DNA of 64,000 nucleotides from Pirellulales bacterium (lineage in GTDB: Bacteria; Planctomycetota; Planctomycetia; Pirellulales; JACPPG01): the NCBI GenBank assembly GCA_035546535.1, contig DASZWQ010000087.1:26189-90188 (forward strand), given 5' to 3'. The translations under genes were made by a program, and so were the position numbers. Positions 2 to 14,116 of this stretch are shown here, one piece after another. Each line of letters opens with the position of its first letter. Position 1 is the stretch's first letter. The notes under the pieces are model-generated. The model searched no databases, was not told where the DNA came from, and was given only the letters and a program-made list of their open reading frames with translations.

Positions 2-361
2 ATGGTTCCGCAGTGCAAGGTGAAGATGGAGAAGTGCGCCGGCGGTATCAAGATGAACTGCGTTTGCGACGACGAAGTGTCGTGCAGCACGCTGCAGAAC
101 ATCTGCCGCATGTTGGCCGGTGGCATGTGCAGCTGCTGCTGCATGATGAACGGCATGGTCATGTGCCAATGCAATTTCGCCATGTGCAATTGCAAGTGTG
201 AAATGACCAAGGACGGCGTCTGCATCACCTGCACCTCAGGTGACAAGGCATGCTGCGACATGCTGCAAGCATGCTGCGATTGCGTGTGCGCCTGCATGAA
301 GTCGGGCTGCATGTGCTGCATTTGCATGGGCGGCATGCCCTGCTGCTGCTGCACCTGCTAG
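2..361 (+). CDS. Cys/Met-rich small protein, metallothionein-like candidate (true 5' end may lie outside the window)
   Basis: The ORF is open to the window edge, with ATG at 2 and TAG at 359-361. It has 33 Cys (32 of them TGC) and 16 Met in 119 aa, with CC, CCC, CCCC and CxC runs and the C-terminus MPCCCCTC. 102 of 119 codons end in G/C, as expected for a real gene in this genome. A two-fold internal repeat is visible. Confidence 0.6.
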   Translation: MVPQCKVKMEKCAGGIKMNCVCDDEVSCSTLQNICRMLAGGMCSCCCMMNGMVMCQCNFAMCNCKCEMTKDGVCITCTSGDKACCDMLQACCDCVCACMKSGCMCCICMGGMPCCCCTC

Positions 362-2760: not shown

Positions 2761-4140
2761 GTGAGTCGCTTACCGCGACCTCTGCTGTGCGTTCTGGGAT
2801 TGGCGATCTCTTTATCGCCGCCCGTGCTAGCACAGCAGTCGCAGCAGCAGGCGCGCCGCGGCTTGCCGGCGCGGCCCGTCGTGCAACGGCTGACGGCGCC
2901 GGAAAGCAGCGCGGAGGTCGTGCCTGCACCCGCGGCCGGAGGCATTGCGATGCAAGGCCCGGCCGGCGCTTCGCTGAATCTCGATCAGGCCAGTGACCTG
3001 GCCGTGCGCAACAATCCCTTGCTGGCGCAAGCCCGCGCCCGCATCGATGCGAACATCGGCAAGGCCATCCAGGCCGGCATCTGGAACAATCCGCGCTGGG
3101 ATACCAACAACCCGCAAGTGTTCGCCGGCAATCAAAGCCAATACAACGCGGGCTTCCAGCAAGAGGTGCCGGTGATGGGCAAGCTGCGGCTCGACCGGGC
3201 GGCTGCCACGCAGGACGTCTACCAAGCGCGGTTCGCTTACATACGGCAGCGGTTCGATCTATTGACCGCTGTGCGGCAACAGTTTTACCGCGTCCTGGCA
3301 CAAGAGCGGCGCGTGGCGGTACTGCGCGAGCTGGTCGAAATCGCGACCCGCTCCCACCATGCCGCACAGCAGCGCGAAAAAGCCGGCGCGGTTGCCGAGA
3401 CCGACGTGCTGCTGTTATTGATCGAATTGCAGCAGGCGCGCATCGCCTTGGAAAACGCGCAATTGATCCTCGTTGGAGCACGTCGCGCGCTGGCCGCGAC
3501 GATGGGACTGCCGCGGTTGGAGATTTCCGACGCGCTTGGCGACCTGACCGCAAATCTGCCTGAATTCGAGGAAGGCGCCATGCGGCAGTTCGTCGCCACG
3601 CAGAATGCTGCCGTGCGCGAAGCGGAATTGCAGATCGTCCAGAACCGCATCTTGTTGCAGCGCGCGCAGGTCGAGCCGTATCCGAATATCTACACAGGTC
3701 CGGCGGTGGCCTGGGGGCCCAGTTCGAGCAGTAACGGCGGATCGGGCAGCCAGTTCTGGTACAACTTTCAATTCAATATTCCCACCTGGAATTTGAACCA
3801 GGGAGGCGTTCGCGCCGCCAACGCGAACATACGCGATGCGGTCGCATCCGTCGGCGTGCTGCAAAACGACCTTCTGCGTCAGGCTGCCGAGACACTGGCC
3901 GCCTACCGCGCGGCGCGCGATCGAGCACGTTACATAGGCGAGCAGATTCTTCCCACCGCCGAGCGCACGTTCCGCTTGATGCAGAACGCGTACGAGGTCG
4001 GACAGGTCGATGTGGCCCCGGTCTTGCAGGCGCAAAAAGCGCTCACCCAGGTGAATCTGGATTACGTCGAAGCGCTCGAGGCCGCCTGGACCAACGCGGC
4101 CGCTTTGGCGGGCTTGCTGCAGGTCGAGATCTTTCCCTAA
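2761..4140 (+). CDS. TolC-family outer membrane efflux protein (CzcC-like)
   Basis: GTG start and signal peptide (LCVLGLAISLSPPVLAQQ). 459 aa with two coiled-coil/beta repeat halves typical of outer-membrane factor (OMF) proteins. First gene of the three-gene RND operon. Confidence 0.85.
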   Translation: MSRLPRPLLCVLGLAISLSPPVLAQQSQQQARRGLPARPVVQRLTAPESSAEVVPAPAAGGIAMQGPAGASLNLDQASDLAVRNNPLLAQARARIDANIGKAIQAGIWNNPRWDTNNPQVFAGNQSQYNAGFQQEVPVMGKLRLDRAAATQDVYQARFAYIRQRFDLLTAVRQQFYRVLAQERRVAVLRELVEIATRSHHAAQQREKAGAVAETDVLLLLIELQQARIALENAQLILVGARRALAATMGLPRLEISDALGDLTANLPEFEEGAMRQFVATQNAAVREAELQIVQNRILLQRAQVEPYPNIYTGPAVAWGPSSSSNGGSGSQFWYNFQFNIPTWNLNQGGVRAANANIRDAVASVGVLQNDLLRQAAETLAAYRAARDRARYIGEQILPTAERTFRLMQNAYEVGQVDVAPVLQAQKALTQVNLDYVEALEAAWTNAAALAGLLQVEIFP

Positions 4141-4394
4141 CGGCATTGTAATGAAACAACCGGCCACGCCGGTTGCGCCAATGTCACTTCGGCGCTCGCG
4201 CCCGAGAACATCTCGACGGATGGCTTCCGTAGCACAAGTGGCGAGGTATGAGGATATTGGGGTCGATGCGCGCGGCGCTGAATGTGGCATCAAGGAACGG
4301 CTGCAAACGCCGCGCGACACGTCTCAAGCCGCGCTTGACATTCGGCGGAAGCTTCAAGGATACTTCGATTTAGGGACTTTCTTCTGCGTCGCGC

Positions 4395-5861
4395 GTGGCG
4401 GCCATGATGCGCTCACTTCCGATTCGTAAAATCGTGCCTTGGGTTGTTGTCGGCGTGCCTCTGTTGCTCGTCGGCGCGATCGGCCTGCGCGGTTTCGAGA
4501 ACTGGGAGAACCCGCCGCAGACCTTCGACCCCGAGCACGATCCGCAGGCGCTAGTCACACTCGCTCCCGGCCAGACCGACACGCTGCAATTCGCGCCCGA
4601 CGCGCTGAAGAAGATGGGCTATCGCATGGCTACGGTCGAGGCCGCGCCGCCGCCGCCGCCGTTGCGATTACAAGGCCGGGTGGAACTGGACGCCGAAGCC
4701 ACGGTGCGGGTGAAGCCGCGCTTCGCCGGTAAGGTTGTAGAGACTGGCCCGTTCGAAGATGGACCACCTGGCGAGCCGCCTCGCACGCTGCGTTACGGTG
4801 ATCACGTTCACAAGGACCAGGTGCTGGCCGTGATCTGGAGCACCGAAGTCGGCGCCAAGAAGAGCGATCTGGTCGACGCGCTCTCGAAACTTCACACGAA
4901 CAAGGAAATCCTCGAACGGTTGCAAAGCGCCGAACAAGGGGCGATTGCCCAGCGGGCCATCATCGACGCCACGCGCGAGTACCAGCAGGCGGTCGTGGCC
5001 GTCCAAGACGCCAGGCGGACGTTGCTCTCTTGGGGGCTGTTGGAGAAGGACCTCGAGGCCGTTTATCGCGAGGCCAAAAAGCTCGAAAAGAAGAAACCCC
5101 AGGGCGGTGACCGGGAGGTCGAACTACCGGCCGAACCCGGGGACCTGGCCGTGGAAAAAAGCTGGGCCAATACCGAGCTGCGATCGCCGATCGACGGCCA
5201 GATTTTCGAAAAGAATTTCAACGCCGGCGACATCGTCGACCCGTCCGACGACTTGTACAAGATCGCCGACAATAGCCACGTGCGCATTTACGCGCGGGTC
5301 TATGAAGAAGATCTGCCGACGCTCCGCCACCTGAAGCCCGAAAAACGTCGCTGGAAGATCGATCTCGTTTCCGATCCGTTCGATGAGCCGATTTCCGGAA
5401 CCTTCGAGCTGGTGGCCGGCATCATCGACCCGGCGGACCACACGGGTACCGTAATGGGCATGCTCGACAACAAGAGCGGGCGGATGAATCTCGGGCAATT
5501 CGTCACCGCCAATATCGCCCTGGACGCCGATCCAGGCATGGTGGCCGTTCCCGCCAAGGCGGTGATCGAAGATGGCAGCCTGGCCGCGTTGTTCGTGCAG
5601 GACAATCACCACCCCGACGATTTCACGCGCCGCCTGGTGGCGATCACCAGCCGCCTTCCCGGCAAAGTTTGCATTCGCAGCGAACCGAATGAGGCCGAGC
5701 GGGCCGCCGGCGCTTCGTCGCTGAAAATCGGCGAGCGCGTTATCGCCTCGGGCGTACCTGAGTTGAATGCCGAGTTGGCCGTCCTCAAGGCCTCGCAACC
5801 ACAGGTGCAAGCCCAGGCTCCGCATCCGTTGAACGGGCTGCTGCGGCCGGCCAGCGAGTAA
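4395..5861 (+). CDS. Efflux RND periplasmic adaptor subunit (CzcB/HlyD-like membrane fusion protein)
   Basis: N-terminal TM anchor (IVPWVVVGVPLLLVGAIGL), then lipoyl/beta-barrel-like segments. It sits between the OMF and the RND pump. The start could be ATG 4404 rather than GTG 4395. Confidence 0.85.
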   Translation: MAAMMRSLPIRKIVPWVVVGVPLLLVGAIGLRGFENWENPPQTFDPEHDPQALVTLAPGQTDTLQFAPDALKKMGYRMATVEAAPPPPPLRLQGRVELDAEATVRVKPRFAGKVVETGPFEDGPPGEPPRTLRYGDHVHKDQVLAVIWSTEVGAKKSDLVDALSKLHTNKEILERLQSAEQGAIAQRAIIDATREYQQAVVAVQDARRTLLSWGLLEKDLEAVYREAKKLEKKKPQGGDREVELPAEPGDLAVEKSWANTELRSPIDGQIFEKNFNAGDIVDPSDDLYKIADNSHVRIYARVYEEDLPTLRHLKPEKRRWKIDLVSDPFDEPISGTFELVAGIIDPADHTGTVMGMLDNKSGRMNLGQFVTANIALDADPGMVAVPAKAVIEDGSLAALFVQDNHHPDDFTRRLVAITSRLPGKVCIRSEPNEAERAAGASSLKIGERVIASGVPELNAELAVLKASQPQVQAQAPHPLNGLLRPASE

Positions 5862-6062
5862 AGGATTACATCTCGTTCAGCAATTGCCACGCGGTGGGAA
5901 ACCAGTCGCCAGACGGCGCGACTGACCCGCGCCGCCCTGCGTAGAAACAGGAGAACGCGCCCCGGGGTTTCTCTTGCGATCCTACGTCCCTCGCCTTTCA
6001 GACAATCGAACATCACCAGGGAATGAACCTGATCGCAAGTTGCTTGCGCCAGGTTAACCGCC

Positions 6063-9000
6063 ATGGTAGCCAAACTCGTCCAATGGGCCCTCAATAGCCC
6101 CGTGGTGGTGCTCCTGGTGGCCGTTGCGCTCATGCTGGTGGGCGGTTATGCGTTCACGCACGTGAACGTCGAGGCTTATCCTGATCCCGCGCCAGCCATC
6201 GTCGAGGTCGTCGCTCAGTACCCGGGCGCCAGCGCCGAGGAAATCGAACGTCAGGTGACGATTCCGCTTGAAGTCGCCCTGGCCGGCATCCCCGGCTTGA
6301 AGTACACGCGCGCGAAATCGATGTTCGGCCTGTCGCACTTGCGCAACCAGTTCGAGTACGGCGTGGATTATGAATACGCCCGGCAGCAGGTCATCAACCG
6401 CCTGCAATCGGTCGACTTGCCGCCGGGCGTTACGCCGCAGATTTCGCCGGCGTCGCCTATCGGCGAGATCGTCCGCTACACGCTGACCAGCCCCAGGGAC
6501 TCGCACGGCCGTCCCATCTATACGCTCAACGATCTCAAGTCGCTGCAAGACTGGACGCTGCAGCGCGAGTTTCGGCGCGTGCCGCGCATCGCCGGCGTGG
6601 TCAGCACGGGCGGCGAGGTGAAGCGCTATGAAATTCGCCCCGACCCCGATCGGCTCAAGGAATACGGCATCACGCTCAGCCAGTTGCAGGATGCCGTCAA
6701 GCAAAGCAATGCCAACGTCGGCGGCGATTACGTCGTGCAAGGCGACACGATCCAGGTGGTCCGCGGCATCGGCCTGATTGGCGGCGGCGAGGACCCCATG
6801 CTGGTCGCCATGCAGATGCACACGCCAGAGGAGGCCACGGCCTATTTGCGCGCCGAGGAAAACCGCCGCATCCAGGAAATTCGGCGCATCGTCATCGCGG
6901 CCACCAACAACGTCCCGATTCGCGTGGAACACGTTGTCGAGGGCGGACCGGTCAAGACCGGTGGTGCACTCGGCGAACGCGGCGTTGTCGTCAATCATCA
7001 AACGCGGCAGGGGCGCCTGGCCATGACCAGGCCGCTGACGGACGAGCACGGCGAAGATCTCGTCGACGCGCAGGGCAAACGGCAATGGCTTGATTTGCCG
7101 GACGAAGTGCAGGGAATCATCCTGCTGCGCAAAGGCGAGCAATCGATTCCCGCCCTGACCGACGTGATGGCCAAGATCGACGAAATGAACAACACGCCCG
7201 GGCGTTTGCTCCCCGGCGTGCGGATCGACCCGTTCTATGATCGCGCGCGACTGATCGATGTGACCACGGAAACGGTGCGTGAGAACCTGGTCGTGGGCAT
7301 GCTGCTCGTGTCCGTTATCTTGCTGATGTTCCTCAGCAACGTGCGCGCGGCGTTGATCGTGGCCATCAATATCCCACTGGCCCTGTTGTTTGCCTTCGCC
7401 GTGCTGTTCTTGCGCCACAAATCGGCCAACTTGTTGTCAATCGGCGCGGTCGACTTCGGCATCATCGTCGACTCGTCGGTGATCATGGTCGAGAACATTT
7501 ACCGCCGGCTCAGCGCCGGCGAGAACGCCAACTTGCCGCTCAAGGATCGCATCTTGCGCGCCTCGCGCGAGGTGGAGCGCAGCTTGTTCTTCTCGACCGT
7601 GATCATGATCTGCGCCATGCTCCCCTTGTTCACCATGACGGGGCCCGAAGGGCAGATCTTTGGTCCGATGGCCGATACTTACGCTTTTGCCTTGGCGGGC
7701 GCATTGGTGTTGGCGCTCACGGTTTCGCCGGTCCTGTGCTCGATCTTCTTCAAGCATCTCAAGCCGGCCCACGACAACGTCCTGGTCCGCGCATTGAAAT
7801 CTTTCTTCCTGGCCGAGTTGGACCTGCTGTTGAAGCACCGCCTGCTGACGATGATCTTTTTCGGCTTCGTTTCGGTCGGAACGATCTGCTACTTGCCGTT
7901 TTTGGGCCGCGAGTTCATGCCCGAGCTGGAAGAGGGCAACATGATCGTCCGCGGCACGTTCCCGGTGAACGTATCGCTCGATGAAGCGGTGGAAAAGGCG
8001 AAAATCGCCCGCAACATCATGATCAAGTATCCCGAGGTGCGGTTGGCCACGTCGCAGATCGGCCGACCGGACGACGGCACCGACCCCACCGGCTACTACA
8101 ACGTGGAATGCTTCGTGCCGCTATACCCACCGGATGAATGGCCCAAGATCGACGGCCATCGCCGCACGAAGGAAGAACTGATCCAGGATATGAACGAGGA
8201 ACTGTCGCGCAGCCTGGTCGGCATCAGTTGGGATTTCTCGCAGATGATCCGCGACAACGTGATGGAATCGCTGTCCGGCGTCAAGGGAGAGAATTCGGTC
8301 AAGATCATCGGGCCGCAGTTGGACGAGTTGGAACGATTGGCGGGTGAATTCAACAGTGTGCTGAGCACCGTACCAGGCATCGTCGACCCCGGCGTGTTCC
8401 ACATTCGCGGCCAGTCGAACCTGGCGTTCCCCGTCAATCGCGAGAAATGCGCTTTGTGGGGTGTGAGCGTGGCCGACGTCGAGGACGTCATTCAGACCGC
8501 GGTCGGCGGTAAGCCGTTTACGGACATGGTCGAGGGAGAACGATCCTTCGACGTGACGTTGCGCTGGCCGCGCGAGTTGCGCCAGACCGAGGAACAGATC
8601 CTCGATATTCCTGTCGACGTCGTGAAGAACAATATTCCGGCGGCGACCGACGGAAGCACGACCGGCGCGTTGTCGGCTACGGGGACGAGTGTCGCGCAGC
8701 CCAATATCACGGGCAGCTCGTACAGTGCGACGGGGGGCGCGGTTAGCCGCGTGCCGCGCCGGCGATTGAAGGACCTGGTCACGCCCGTCGACGCGCAAGG
8801 TGTCCCGGATCCTCACGGCACGTTTGTGCGACCGGGTGCTGCGATCATTTCGCGCGAACAGGGAAGCCGATTGATCGCCGTCAAGTTTGGCGTCCGCGGG
8901 CGCGACCTGGCTAGTGCCGTGGCCGAAGCACAAGCGAAAACCGCGAACCTGCTCAAGCCCCCTTACCGCGCCGTGTGGAGCGGCGAGTTCCAGCAAATGC

Positions 9001-9527
9001 AGGAAGCCGAGCAACGCATGGCGATTATTGTCGGGCTGGCCATGGTGCTCATCATGGTCATGCTCTACCTGGCGTTTCGTTCTTTGCTGGATGCCATCGT
9101 GGTGCTGGCCAACGTGGCCGTGATGTCGATGGGGGGCGTGTGGACGCTGTGGCTCACGGGCCTGAACTTCAACGTCTCGGCGGCCGTCGGCTTCGTATCG
9201 ATTCTCGGCGTCGCCGTGATGAACGGGCTGTTACTCGTATCCTCGTTCAACGCCCTGCGCGCCAGCGGCGTCCCACTTCGCTCCGCCATTCGTACCGGCG
9301 CGCTGAACCGCATCCGGCCGCTGACCATGACGGCGCTGACGGCCATTCTTGGTCTCTTACCGGCGGCGCTATCGACCAAGATCGGCGCCCAATCACAGCG
9401 GCCGCTGGCCATCGTCGTCGTCGGCGGTATGGTGACCACCCTCTTGATGTTCAACTTGATCCCGGTGCTCTACAGCTTCTACGGCCACCGCGAGCCGCCC
9501 GAGGGCGCCGGCCACCTGGCCGAATGA
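6063..9527 (+). CDS. czcA: Heavy-metal efflux RND pump, CzcA/CusA (HME) family
   Basis: 1154 aa with 12-TM RND architecture. The TM4 sequence AVDFGIIVDSSVIMVEN (nt ~7447-7497) carries the D-x5-D-x6-E charged triad characteristic of CzcA-type divalent-cation pumps. Confidence 0.92.
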   Translation: MVAKLVQWALNSPVVVLLVAVALMLVGGYAFTHVNVEAYPDPAPAIVEVVAQYPGASAEEIERQVTIPLEVALAGIPGLKYTRAKSMFGLSHLRNQFEYGVDYEYARQQVINRLQSVDLPPGVTPQISPASPIGEIVRYTLTSPRDSHGRPIYTLNDLKSLQDWTLQREFRRVPRIAGVVSTGGEVKRYEIRPDPDRLKEYGITLSQLQDAVKQSNANVGGDYVVQGDTIQVVRGIGLIGGGEDPMLVAMQMHTPEEATAYLRAEENRRIQEIRRIVIAATNNVPIRVEHVVEGGPVKTGGALGERGVVVNHQTRQGRLAMTRPLTDEHGEDLVDAQGKRQWLDLPDEVQGIILLRKGEQSIPALTDVMAKIDEMNNTPGRLLPGVRIDPFYDRARLIDVTTETVRENLVVGMLLVSVILLMFLSNVRAALIVAINIPLALLFAFAVLFLRHKSANLLSIGAVDFGIIVDSSVIMVENIYRRLSAGENANLPLKDRILRASREVERSLFFSTVIMICAMLPLFTMTGPEGQIFGPMADTYAFALAGALVLALTVSPVLCSIFFKHLKPAHDNVLVRALKSFFLAELDLLLKHRLLTMIFFGFVSVGTICYLPFLGREFMPELEEGNMIVRGTFPVNVSLDEAVEKAKIARNIMIKYPEVRLATSQIGRPDDGTDPTGYYNVECFVPLYPPDEWPKIDGHRRTKEELIQDMNEELSRSLVGISWDFSQMIRDNVMESLSGVKGENSVKIIGPQLDELERLAGEFNSVLSTVPGIVDPGVFHIRGQSNLAFPVNREKCALWGVSVADVEDVIQTAVGGKPFTDMVEGERSFDVTLRWPRELRQTEEQILDIPVDVVKNNIPAATDGSTTGALSATGTSVAQPNITGSSYSATGGAVSRVPRRRLKDLVTPVDAQGVPDPHGTFVRPGAAIISREQGSRLIAVKFGVRGRDLASAVAEAQAKTANLLKPPYRAVWSGEFQQMQEAEQRMAIIVGLAMVLIMVMLYLAFRSLLDAIVVLANVAVMSMGGVWTLWLTGLNFNVSAAVGFVSILGVAVMNGLLLVSSFNALRASGVPLRSAIRTGALNRIRPLTMTALTAILGLLPAALSTKIGAQSQRPLAIVVVGGMVTTLLMFNLIPVLYSFYGHREPPEGAGHLAE

Positions 9528-11521: not shown

Positions 11522-14116
11522 TCACTCCTTCGTCCGCGTGGCGCCGGCCGAAATCAACGTGGCCACATTGGCCAGGATCTTCGGTAGGCGCAGTCCGCCC
11601 GGCGACGCAAGGTACTTCGGCTCCCACTGCGGGTGGAACTTTTCCTTGTATTGCCGCAGCCCTTGAAAATTGTAGAAGTGCTCACCGTGGCGAAAGACGA
11701 GCGTGCCCAATCGGTGCCACAAGGGGGCGAGCGGCCCCACGTCCAAGCCTGACAACGGGGCCATGCCCATGCTGAAGTTTTCGAACCCTTGCGCGCGCCC
11801 CCACAGCATGAGCTCGACGAACAGATAATCCATGATGCCAGCGGGCCCCGCCGGTCGATAGCGCATCAGGTCGATCGACAGTTCGTGCTTACCGGCGCCG
11901 CACAGCACATTGGCAAAGCCGACGATGCGTTCCTCGTGGCGTACTAGCGCCAGCGGAAACCGCCGCAAATAATCTTCGCGGAAGAAGCCGAGCGAAAAGC
12001 CCTTCTCACGCGCGTTGCGCGTCGCGAGCCACTGGTCCGAGATTTCTTTCAATTCCGGCAACAGAGGCGGAACCGCCTCGCGCGGTATCACCTCGAACGT
12101 GCAGCCGGCGTGCTGGGCCTTGCGAACCGCTTCGCGTAAATGGCGCTGGCTACCTCCCTCGAGTGAGAAATCCGCGAGCGACACGCGCCCTTCTTCCCCC
12201 AACTTCAACAGCGACAAGCCCAGGTCGAGATACAAGGGCAAGTTCGCCGCCGACACCTGGTAGAAGACCGGCGTGCCGGCATGCCGGTCGCACAACTCGC
12301 GAAACTGCCAGGCCAACTCGTTGGCCTCGGCCCTCGTTCCCACGGGATCGCCGAGCACCACCCAACTCGAACCTTCGATGGCGTACATCAAGAAGGCGGT
12401 GCGGCTCTCGTTGAACAAGAGCGACTTATCGGCCAATAGCGCCAGGTAGGCCGACGTGCGTGGCGATTCCGTGGCGACGCGCTCGGCGGCCGCCAGTTCT
12501 TCTTCGTCCGGCGTGTGCGCCTGCGGATCGGCCGGCCGCAAGAGCCGCGCGACGCCCGCCGCGACGAGCACAGCCGCCGCGCCGACCATGGCCCGCAGCG
12601 AGCGCGGGGCGTCTTCGGCCAGGGCAAATCGCCACCACAGCGAATTGGTGTACTCGACGTGCTTATGAGAGAAAACACCCAGCCATAGCGTGCCGAGAAA
12701 CACCAGCACGATCGAAGTGATCCAGCCCGGCGTCAATGTCTCGTGCAATAGCGAAGCGCGCCGATCGAAGTAGCGGCGCGATGGCAATAAGGCGAGCAGC
12801 ATGACGGTGAGAATCGACGCCTCTTCGAGGTTGAACCCTCGCAAGAGCGAAACCACGATCCCGCAGGTCAGCAATCCCACCGACAAATGGTAAGCGGCGT
12901 CCAAGCGTTCGAGCAGGCCGCGCGCCAAGAGCAGCAACCCCATGCCCGCCACGCTACCGAAGAGGTGCGAGAACTCGACGACCGGCAACGGCACGAAATC
13001 CGATAGCCAATGCCAGCGCGATACGGTGCGCGGGAGTGCGCCGTACACCAGCAAGGCCGCGCCGCTGGCGAACGTCGTGCCGGCCAGCACGCGCGGCACG
13101 ATTTCCGGCGCCCAGCGCCCGAACAATCCGGCGTAACGGGTTACCGTCTTCCAGCGCAGCGACGCTTCGTGCCCGGCCAAGAGCCCCGTGGCCAGCACCA
13201 GCGGCAGCAAGTAGTACGTCAACCGGTAAACTACGAGCGACCCCATTACAGCGGCCGGATCCTGCGGCGCAAGGGTATGCAGCAAGATCGCCTCCACGAC
13301 CCCCAGGCCTCCCGGCACGTGGCTCATGATGCCCGCGACCTGCGCCGTGAGAAACATGCCCATGAATTTGGGATACGACACGGCGATCTCGGCCGGCAAC
13401 AGTGCGTACAAGACCGCGGATGCGGCCATCAGGTCGGCCGAAGCGATGAACATCTGCATCAGCGTGAAGCCCGGCGGAGGGAGCGAGAACTCCCAGCCGC
13501 GTACCGCGACCGGTCGCAGCCGCAACGCGCTGAAGCACAAATACGCGCCGACGCCAGCCAGCAGGGTGATGCCGATCGGAAAAACGGTCGTGACGGGAAG
13601 TTTCACCTCCACAACCTCGGGCAGCGGTAGTGGATCGAACGTGAAGACCGCCCCGGCCAGCGTGCAAAAGCCCAGCACGAAGGTCACCGTGCAGATGGCG
13701 ATGATCTTCACCACCTCGACGGCCGAGAGGCCGAAAGTCGAATACAGGCGGTAGCGCATGGTCGAGCCGCCGAGGATCGCGCCGAAGTTGTAACTCGACA
13801 CATAGCTGACGAACGAAGCCAGCGCGATCCGCGAGTACGATAACGACCGGTCGATATAGTGCAGCGCCAGCCAGTCATAGCCGGTCAACAGGGTGTAGCT
13901 AAGCGCCGTCATCGCGAGCGCCGCGCCGAGTTGCTTCCAGGACAAAAGTGACAAGCGTTCTTCGATGTCGCGGAGCGAATAATCGCGCAACTCGCGGTGC
14001 AGCACGAACACGGCGGCCGAGAAGATGAGTACCACCGCCAGCGACCCCGCAACGCCGAGCACCCGCTGGCGCCAGGCCGGCGCGCCGCGCGCCGCGTGTC
14101 GAGAGTCCTGCTTCAT
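11522..14116 (-). CDS. mprF: Bifunctional lysyl-/aminoacyl-phosphatidylglycerol synthase and flippase MprF
   Basis: About 864 aa from ATG 14116. The N-terminal part has about 14 TM segments and the C-terminal part looks like an aminoacyl-PG synthase domain (LFVELMLWGRAQGFENFSMGMAPLSG, HFYNFQGLRQYKEKF). The start overlaps the upstream stop as ATGA. Confidence 0.85.
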   Translation of the reverse strand: MKQDSRHAARGAPAWRQRVLGVAGSLAVVLIFSAAVFVLHRELRDYSLRDIEERLSLLSWKQLGAALAMTALSYTLLTGYDWLALHYIDRSLSYSRIALASFVSYVSSYNFGAILGGSTMRYRLYSTFGLSAVEVVKIIAICTVTFVLGFCTLAGAVFTFDPLPLPEVVEVKLPVTTVFPIGITLLAGVGAYLCFSALRLRPVAVRGWEFSLPPPGFTLMQMFIASADLMAASAVLYALLPAEIAVSYPKFMGMFLTAQVAGIMSHVPGGLGVVEAILLHTLAPQDPAAVMGSLVVYRLTYYLLPLVLATGLLAGHEASLRWKTVTRYAGLFGRWAPEIVPRVLAGTTFASGAALLVYGALPRTVSRWHWLSDFVPLPVVEFSHLFGSVAGMGLLLLARGLLERLDAAYHLSVGLLTCGIVVSLLRGFNLEEASILTVMLLALLPSRRYFDRRASLLHETLTPGWITSIVLVFLGTLWLGVFSHKHVEYTNSLWWRFALAEDAPRSLRAMVGAAAVLVAAGVARLLRPADPQAHTPDEEELAAAERVATESPRTSAYLALLADKSLLFNESRTAFLMYAIEGSSWVVLGDPVGTRAEANELAWQFRELCDRHAGTPVFYQVSAANLPLYLDLGLSLLKLGEEGRVSLADFSLEGGSQRHLREAVRKAQHAGCTFEVIPREAVPPLLPELKEISDQWLATRNAREKGFSLGFFREDYLRRFPLALVRHEERIVGFANVLCGAGKHELSIDLMRYRPAGPAGIMDYLFVELMLWGRAQGFENFSMGMAPLSGLDVGPLAPLWHRLGTLVFRHGEHFYNFQGLRQYKEKFHPQWEPKYLASPGGLRLPKILANVATLISAGATRTKE

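Follow-up and report, generated by a model that had tools for sequence, protein, structure and literature searches.

What does a planctomycete do with a small protein in which two of every five residues carry sulfur? The question arises at the edge of a 64,000-nucleotide (nt) stretch of DNA from a Pirellulales bacterium (contig DASZWQ010000087.1, positions 26,189 to 90,188 of the forward strand), which we call the window. By translation and comparison with homologs, its positions 2–361 (+) are the truncated end of a gene: the last 119 codons and the stop codon of a Cys/Met-rich protein of ~155 amino acids (aa). An initial annotation, made from the letters of the window, had proposed a new metallothionein-like metal-storage protein. 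Judging from the genes that accompany its relatives and from a leader RNA that many of them share, the protein belongs to a sulfur circuit and not to a metal-resistance system. The function that we favor, tentatively and with a probability of about 0.4, is that of a reserve or buffer of cysteine and methionine that forms part of the sulfur-assimilation circuitry.

A conserved family with fixed Cys and optional Met

The window fragment has 345 homologous proteins at E ≤ 0.01, which are ~150–160 aa long and cover 92–100% of it. The best 120 of these show 59–82% identity; all are called 'hypothetical', and none carries a Pfam domain. When the window protein was run against Pfam-A and NCBIfam with hmmscan, no family was returned even at E ≤ 10. 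The family profile has no significant match among PDB sequences, and the predicted structures have none among PDB folds at E < 0.1. A HMMER search of 1.84 billion cluster representatives recovered only 201 clusters, mostly fragments, and therefore suggests that no larger superfamily stands behind the family; neither a distant annotated superfamily nor an informative fusion came up in it. Literature searches on planctomycete metallothioneins, bacterial sulfur-storage proteins and sulfur reservoirs yielded nothing relevant, and no identical copy of the window protein or gene was met in an exact-protein lookup or in an exact 49-mer scan of metagenome contigs. With conserved homologs and no Pfam, NCBIfam or PDB match, the initial annotation's idea of a genuinely new Cys-rich family holds, and on sequence grounds we regard the family as real, conserved and so far undescribed. 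The same annotation had allowed that the frame might be the tail of a larger, already described family: it is indeed the tail of a larger protein, but of a family that is undescribed.

A scan of one genome per GTDB species gave 297 relatives. The first peptide pattern used in finding them, GVCITCTSGDKACC, is the most conserved stretch of the family in 120 sequences (window positions 215–256, +) and serves as a search signature. Among the best 80 of the 297, record titles are nearly all Planctomycetota (Pirellulales, Gemmataceae and Isosphaeraceae). Cultured carriers include Singulisphaera acidiphila DSM 18658, Singulisphaera sp. GP187, Limnoglobus roseus PX52 (two copies), Gemmata algarum and Paludisphaera soli, and one homolog comes from an Opitutaceae metagenome-assembled genome. 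The closest relative of the window gene among the 84 loci that we fetched is L005, with a best DNA identity of 82.5%; the genome of the window is not represented in this set.

A recount by script reproduced the composition first reported for the fragment, in which sulfur is carried by 41% of the residues (33 Cys and 16 Met), Phe and Arg occur once each, and His, Trp and Tyr are lacking; the quoted runs CSCCC, CQC, CNCKC, ACCDCVCAC, CMCCIC and MPCCCCTC are all found in the translation of 2–361. G or C occupies the third position in 102 of 119 codons, and TGC encodes 32 of the 33 Cys, as had been stated. That the frame is genuinely coding is further borne out by the 345 homologs and by dN/dS values of 0.17–0.47 between the window copy and 18 relatives, which indicate purifying selection. 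Other-frame open reading frames (ORFs) at 13–201, 225–368, 236–418 and 250–531 overlap the gene and are by-products of the Cys-rich frame. The window edge cuts off the N-terminus, as noted at the outset: full-length homologs carry 34–40 more residues upstream, and translation does not begin at the ATG at position 2. By this comparison, what the window retains is the last three quarters of a protein of ~155 aa, and the true start of the gene and its 5′ leader lie outside the window, on its upstream side; residue i of the fragment is equivalent to residue i+36 of the homolog P0001. At the other end of the gene, the hairpin with a T-tract noted earlier was found by RNA folding as a terminator-like element (399–440, +) ~40 nt past the stop codon, in which a 38-nt stem (399–436) is followed by UUUUCUU. 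The 101-nt fold of positions 355–455 reaches −48 kcal/mol (z = −3.9 against shuffles), and a simple terminator scan did not pick up the hairpin at 399–436.

In the homologs, start codons are placed by a conserved N-terminus, M-(S/T)-(S/T)-x-M/I-M/L-x-E/D-R (e.g., residues 1–9 of P0001), which occurs in both paralog classes described below, and by a strong AAAGGAG(T) Shine-Dalgarno sequence at the usual distance. This conserved tip is followed by a disordered, G/P/S/A/M-rich linker of ~30 residues, and might serve as a degron or as a tag for adaptor recognition or targeting. Secretion was rejected by eye, as the N-terminal 35–40 residues are G/P/S/M-rich with no hydrophobic core and are disordered in AlphaFold2 models; the protein thus appears to be cytoplasmic and to lack a signal peptide.

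The AlphaFold2 model of P0001, built on a 120-sequence alignment, has a mean predicted local distance difference test score (pLDDT) of 80.9 and a predicted TM-score (pTM) of 0.70, with residues 1–35 disordered and residues 40–155 above 90. The predicted core is a compact tandem duplication of a beta-beta-alpha-beta-beta unit, eight strands and two helices in all. In P0001, repeat 1 consists of strands 38–48 and 51–57, helix 61–74 and strands 79–85 and 88–94, and repeat 2 of strands 99–105 and 108–114, helix 118–136 and strands 140–145 and 148–154. According to hhalign and the model, repeat 1 (beta-hairpin, helix, beta-hairpin) lies at positions 23–172 (+, residues 8–57) in the window and repeat 2 at positions 194–352 (+, residues 65–117). 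An internal duplication had already been read from the sequence, and it is well founded: hhalign aligns the two halves of the family alignment with a probability of 92% (E 6e-7, score 34.3), as compared to a maximum score of 21.1 in 100 column shuffles, and AlphaFold2 places the same elements in the same order twice. In the 120 sequences, G108, C113 and D117 (P0001 numbering) are invariant, T112, T114, S115, G116 and C120 are at least 90% conserved, and ~20 Cys columns are conserved at 90% or more. The invariant or near-invariant non-Cys residues comprise E46, K47, G50/51, Q68, N69, N86, G87 and G108, together with T112, T114, S115, G116, D117, Q125 and P149. In the alignment and model, Cys residues occupy alternate strand positions and heptad-like helix positions. 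Given this confident globular fold, and with no radical-SAM or other maturase genes recurring nearby, we rejected the possibility that the gene encodes the precursor of a ribosomally synthesized and post-translationally modified peptide.

The two sulfur amino acids behave differently in the family. Across 117 core columns of 194 sequences, the core holds 27.9 ± 2.6 Cys and 14.6 ± 6.1 Met, the latter ranging from 1 to 28. The positions of the ~28 Cys are fixed. Sequences with more Cys tend to have less Met (r = −0.44), and Met is the commonest replacement at Cys-consensus columns (23%). Met enrichment is seen in the folded core and the disordered tail alike. Two paralog classes can be told apart, one Met-rich (16–32 Met, with the window copy at 16) and one Met-poor (1–9 Met), in which L, I, V, W, Y or T stand at the Met positions and the tail is likewise not Met-rich. 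Several genomes carry one copy of each (L020/L039, L024/L027, L018/L028 and L023/L068). A Met-poor member, P0100, is predicted to adopt the same fold (core pLDDT >92, pTM 0.72). Because Met-poor paralogs keep both the Cys scaffold and the predicted fold, Met is not a conserved ligand set, and the mix of Cys thiolate and Met thioether ligands that the initial annotation had envisaged loses ground in view of paralogs with just 1–5 Met.

Sulfur genes and a shared leader RNA

To describe the genomic context, we grouped all ORFs within ±10 kb of the 84 loci into clusters, annotated those that recur, and used neighbor proteins as tblastn queries; the counts below refer to 81 distinct loci. Three kinds of sulfur-related neighbor recur. 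The first is a divergent operon of a PALP+CBS-domain enzyme and a Cys_Met_Meta_PP enzyme, which lies across a gap of 250–700 bp in 11 independent loci (L001, L002/3, L006, L007, L011, L016, L017, L018, L020, L023 and L024) and nearby in 4 more. The best NCBIfam model for the PALP+CBS enzyme is cystathionine beta-synthase (CBS; 405 bits, below the cut-off), and the Cys_Met_Meta_PP enzyme, of the gamma-lyase family, reaches the PRK07811 cut-off in L002. The second is an Rrf2 regulator, adjacent in 11 loci and directly downstream on the same strand in 3, for which the best specific NCBIfam model is CymR at a score far below its cut-off. Half of these Rrf2 proteins have a three-Cys iron-sulfur (Fe-S) signature and half do not. 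The third is a Sbp-CysT-CysW-CysA sulfate ATP-binding cassette (ABC) transporter, adjacent in 8–9 loci, whose representative Sbp, CysT and CysA proteins pass curated NCBIfam cut-offs. Met-rich copies adjoin CBS and the gamma-lyase-family enzyme or Rrf2, and Met-poor copies adjoin Sbp-CysTWA. Altogether, ~32 of the 81 distinct loci (~40%) have a sulfur-metabolism neighbor, whereas we estimate a chance expectation of ~1%, since a genome holds one or two such loci.

Many of the genes are also preceded by a common 5′ element of ~75 nt, which we found by k-mer enrichment upstream of family genes. It begins with a −10-like box and continues with two similar hairpins, GCC-GA-CCCG...CGGG-A-GGC and CU-GA-CUGG...CCAG-A-GG, each with a GA/A internal loop and a 3′ strand that resembles a Shine-Dalgarno sequence (GGGAGG and CCAGAGG). 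A weaker outer GCG/CGC stem surrounds hairpin 2. RNAalifold recovered both hairpins. In 30 sequences, 90.8% of cells are paired as compared to 40–48% for slid registers. In 76 distinct sequences, pairing reaches 93.7% of cells with compensatory changes in 11 of 16 pairs, in an alignment that was model-fitted and in which half of the sequences had been found with a pattern fixing hairpin 2. On no measure did any of 500 shuffles reach the observed value. Examples are L015:5065–5140, L042:9852–9924, L002:9843–9914, L005:2858–2932, L117:5653–5729 and L091:2173–2242. The window holds no copy, as its leader region is cut off; in L005, the leader lies ~80 nt before the start.

A covariance model of the element (R1) places it before the family gene in ~35 genome loci, and also before DUF1559 genes, a PSD1 gene and a lipoprotein-DUF1559 pair. 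When metagenome contigs were scanned with a pattern, 51 loci were added, and in 18 of them a family gene follows. Overall, the leader stands before the family gene in about 50 loci. The other metagenome loci carry Porin_O_P porins, a Porin_5 porin, BON-domain proteins, or DUF4198-like lipoproteins with DUF1559 downstream. In 14 of these 33 loci, and in two genome loci, the leader stands 0.25–0.7 kb after cysA of a sulfate ABC operon on the same strand, in all 16 of the 35 instances that have no family gene behind the leader.

The Porin_O_P porins and BON proteins in question contain no Cys and 0–1 internal Met. Cys and Met together amount to 0, 1, 0 and 0 residues in Porin_O_P proteins of 484, 475, 476 and 382 residues, and to none in BON proteins of 133 and 154 residues. 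Sbp is similarly poor, at 0.27–0.84% Cys+Met, where the background has a median of 3.3% and its first percentile lies at 0.47%. Depletion of this kind is reportedly a mark of proteins that cells produce when starved for sulfur. One and the same leader thus stands before those proteins of these genomes with the least sulfur and those with the most. Porins of such extreme sulfur economy (~480 aa; L091:2265–3719, L093, L111, L121 and L141) and the BON proteins (L092 and L117) are found downstream of the sulfate ABC operon. The distance from motif to ATG is 65–133 nt (median 98) in family leaders, which include a long variable hairpin, and ~28 nt in porin leaders.

We regard this leader as a candidate new class of regulatory RNA. 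Rfam 15 scans offered no known riboswitch (e.g., one for S-adenosylmethionine) upstream of the gene: in 7 loci no family reached its gathering threshold, and on the L015 leader none matched at E ≤ 10. A shared palindromic operator was sought upstream of the genes, and only a clade-specific CGGAA-N3-TTCCG turned up. We rejected the notion that the Cys-rich frame is itself a leader peptide or attenuator, as it runs to 155 codons, conserves residues other than Cys and is followed by a terminator of its own. As a separate observation, the leaders of one Met-poor clade (L015, L019, L022, L026 and L028) carry a perfect palindrome or hairpin, CGGAACGTTTCCG, ~55–75 nt before the ATG, between the two-hairpin motif and the Shine-Dalgarno sequence. 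Such an element could serve as an operator or belong to an expression platform.

It is because three independent kinds of sulfur neighbor occur in different clades, and because the leader is shared with a sulfate-transporter locus, that we assign the family to a sulfur circuit. What we find is what would be expected of a sulfur regulon, namely recurrent linkage with genes for sulfate uptake and for Cys/Met interconversion together with a shared cis-element.

Metal genes do not recur in the same way. The top of a Pfam census of 150 immediate neighbors is made up of DUF1559, PALP, DDE_5, Rrf2, AP_endonuc_2 and Sulfatase. None of the 25 commonest families in this census is a metal-homeostasis family or an ArsR/SmtB-type sensor; the regulators are Rrf2 and, in one clade, MarR. 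The CzcCBA-type operon that the initial annotation had pointed out 2.4 kb downstream is present in the window (2761–9527, +), with a TolC-like outer-membrane factor, a CzcB-like adaptor (488 aa) and a resistance-nodulation-division (RND) pump (1154 aa) that scores 742.8 bits against the NCBIfam CusA/CzcA cut-off of 701.45, but as a context for metal storage it is not conserved. We rejected a linkage to metal efflux, since among the 81 other loci there is only one RND match, at 21% identity. An RdgB/HAM1-type XTP/dITP diphosphatase (617–1216, −) and a 395-aa protein with no family match (1255–2442, −) lie between the Cys-rich gene and the efflux operon; the latter has a hydrophobic N-terminal segment, suggesting secretion. 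NikR occurs near the family gene only in L002/L003 (1.4 kb away; L002:11850–12299).

Several further observations concern the neighborhoods. The Rrf2 regulators are of two kinds, an Fe-S type with C-x7-8-C-x5-C that is often directly downstream on the same strand (L037:10675–11091, L057:8664–9086 and L046:10187–10573) and a Cys-less type (L052, L034 and L069). In L002, a cobalamin riboswitch (12946–13177, +; 94.7 bits) a few kb from the family gene precedes a salvage and transport cluster of CbiZ, CobA/CobO and a FecCD-type ABC system. In a Gemmataceae clade (L085–L090, L038 and L051), a DDE_5 gene, a PSD1+DUF1501 pair and a 75-aa ORF are syntenic upstream and MarR lies downstream; the 'transposase-like' DDE_5 gene looks domesticated rather than mobile.

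A proposed sulfur reserve and its rivals

If the protein is a sulfur reserve, assimilated sulfur would be parked as Cys, and in Met-rich paralogs such as the window copy also as Met, in a small, folded package whose thiolates are capped by bound metal ions. The sulfur would be recovered by proteolysis, helped in the case of the Met-rich copies by the head-to-head reverse-transsulfuration enzymes, CBS and the gamma-lyase-family enzyme. The protein is probably metal-stabilized; that it stores and gives up sulfur, that metal caps its thiolates, that it is cytoplasmic and in which direction it is regulated are matters that we infer. Such a bank would explain why selection appears to act on sulfur content in core and tail, why the paralogs split into Met-rich and Met-poor classes with neighbors to match, and why Met-rich copies pair with a Met-to-Cys pathway.

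Several findings weigh against this function. The ~28 Cys that stay fixed across Pirellulales, Gemmatales and Isosphaerales point to ligand or structural roles, for which a pure store would have no need. About 60% of the loci have no sulfur-related neighbor (L005, the closest relative of the window gene, adjoins unrelated genes), and the contexts of some clades are unrelated and heterogeneous. No dedicated protease or adaptor was found. Finally, a leader held in common with sulfur-free, starvation-type proteins would mean that the gene is transcribed under sulfur shortage, an ill fit for a protein with >40% Cys+Met. It is tempting to speculate that starved cells pre-arm the bank for the next sulfur pulse, much as polyphosphate undergoes 'overplus' accumulation after phosphate starvation. 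It is also possible that the longer family leader inverts the read-out, or that the protein acts in sulfur acquisition itself. The most complete version of our proposal, in which planctomycetes possess a dedicated sulfur reserve in the form of a folded protein with >40% Cys+Met, and a new sulfur-responsive leader RNA, possibly a riboswitch, controls this protein along with sulfur-free porins encoded beside the sulfate transporter, seems to us doubtful as a whole.

Less likely than a sulfur reserve, yet a serious competitor and ahead of the remaining alternatives, is a metallothionein- or Csp-like metal store, in which the Cys core would bind clusters of soft metals such as Cu(I), Zn or Cd for sequestration or delivery and the sulfur-metabolism neighbors would merely supply the burst of cysteine needed to make the protein. 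Part of the original metallothionein-like assignment carries over to it: the Cys density (24–28% of the core, with no His or aromatic residues) and the CxC/CC/CxxC motifs are as described, and the Cys columns are strictly conserved. In the P0001 model, C120, C127, C130 and C134 take up heptad-like, presumably core-facing positions on a helix, which recalls Csp, and the Met-rich tail with its MxxM-type motifs resembles Cu(I)-handling motifs. The adjacent Fe-S-type Rrf2 could report damage by thiophilic metals, and a CusA/CzcA-type pump does lie 2.4 kb away in the window. What does not carry over is the metal-gene context, the role of Met as ligand and the classical fold. Apart from the window and the NikR gene of L002/L003, no metal sensor, P-type ATPase, chaperone or efflux gene is near the gene in the 81 loci; Met is dispensable for fold and family; the predicted regular alpha/beta fold is unlike that of classical metallothioneins; and context and leader RNA tie the family to sulfate uptake and transsulfuration. 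A protein with ~30 cytoplasmic thiolates would probably bind Zn, Cu or Fe, and so look metallothionein-like in vitro.

We consider it improbable that the protein traffics or traps sulfur. Here its thiols would hold sulfide, sulfane sulfur (persulfides or polysulfides), or Fe-S or thioferrate-like clusters and hand them on, buffering reactive sulfur from sulfate reduction or from the neighboring CBS and gamma-lyase-family enzymes. Enzymes of these two families are known to release H2S and persulfides, and their head-to-head position would suit such a role, as would the leader and locus held in common with sulfate import and the three-Cys Fe-S signature in half of the adjacent Rrf2 regulators. 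Co-expression with starvation-type proteins would likewise suit an acquisition component. However, no rhodanese, TusA, DsrE, SufS or IscS is among the recurrent neighbors, the Cys are not spaced as in Fe-S motifs (e.g., CxxCxxC), and the split between Met-rich and Met-poor paralogs is left unexplained. Least probable is a sacrificial redox buffer, whose Cys and Met would scavenge oxidants or electrophiles and then be recycled: the extreme thiol and thioether content and the adjacent or co-operonic Fe-S-type Rrf2 regulators, often redox or NO sensors, are in keeping with it, but Msr, thioredoxin and peroxiredoxin genes do not recur nearby, and it leaves both the sulfate-transporter linkage and the shared leader unaccounted for.

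To our knowledge, no bacterial protein banks sulfur amino acids, and we know of no metallothionein-like family that is wired into sulfate uptake and transsulfuration. Should the sulfur reserve prove true, it would add a missing member to the microbial nutrient reserves, a sulfur counterpart of cyanophycin for nitrogen or polyphosphate for phosphorus, and, provided that sulfate in their soil, peat and groundwater habitats is low or fluctuates, would bear on how oligotrophic planctomycetes manage there. Should the protein store metal instead, it would represent a new fold for thiolate-cluster proteins; either store would be new. With genes for proteins at both extremes of sulfur content behind it, the leader offers a readable regulon, through which sulfur sensing in this phylum can be put to a direct test in cultured strains.

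Comparison with known systems

The initial annotation did not recognize the protein as SmtA/BmtA, MymT or Csp, and rightly so, as the family has no Pfam or NCBIfam match at E ≤ 10 and no PDB sequence or fold match. Like SmtA/BmtA and MymT, it is small, Cys-rich and by prediction cytoplasmic, with CxC and CxxC motifs. SmtA, however, has ~55 aa with 9 Cys plus His in a Zn4 cluster and is encoded beside SmtB, and MymT has 53 aa and is Cu-regulated, whereas the family protein has ~155 aa, no sequence match and no metal sensor nearby. His is absent from the window fragment, and no His is conserved in the family alignments, in contrast to the Cys and His ligands of a Zn4 cluster.

Eukaryotic metallothioneins share with the family a Cys content of ~25–30%, the lack of aromatic residues and His, and two domains, which in the family result from duplication. 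They have no regular secondary structure without metal, whereas the family is predicted to be an ordered alpha/beta protein (pLDDT >90) and has conserved non-Cys residues (E46, K47, Q68, N69, N86, G87 and TSGD) and a disordered N-terminal tail. With 33 Cys in 119 aa, where a Cys content above roughly 15–30% is the generic mark of a metallothionein, and with the corresponding motifs, the family agrees with the compositional definition but, going by the models, not with the structural one.

In Csp proteins, Cys residues line the inside of a four-helix bundle, and the genes are rarely Cu-regulated (PMC11672702). Csp3 (DUF326) resembles the family in being folded and cytoplasmic with no signal peptide, in having many Cys that are apparently interior, and in standing outside a classical metal-stress operon (PMC11672702). 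The Csp four-helix bundle holds ~13–20 Cys, as opposed to ~28–35 in a predicted duplicated beta-beta-alpha-beta-beta fold, and the family differs further in its lack of a Pfam match and its link to sulfur metabolism. We take Csp3 to be the nearest mechanistic analogue.

A prokaryotic protein that has been proposed to store sulfur, together with iron, is IssA of Pyrococcus, a thioferrate iron-sulfur store (PMC5524996). Its store is inorganic thioferrate on a different protein, and we saw no homology or overlap of context with the family. The sulfur-rich seed proteins of plants, such as 2S albumins and delta-zeins, are eukaryotic, secretory, disulfide-bonded and unrelated in sequence, and we know of no bacterial counterpart to them. 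Even so, they combine a high Met+Cys content with a conserved Cys skeleton, variable Met and a link to sulfur nutrition. If the family does serve as a sulfur reserve, these seed proteins would be its nearest functional analogue.

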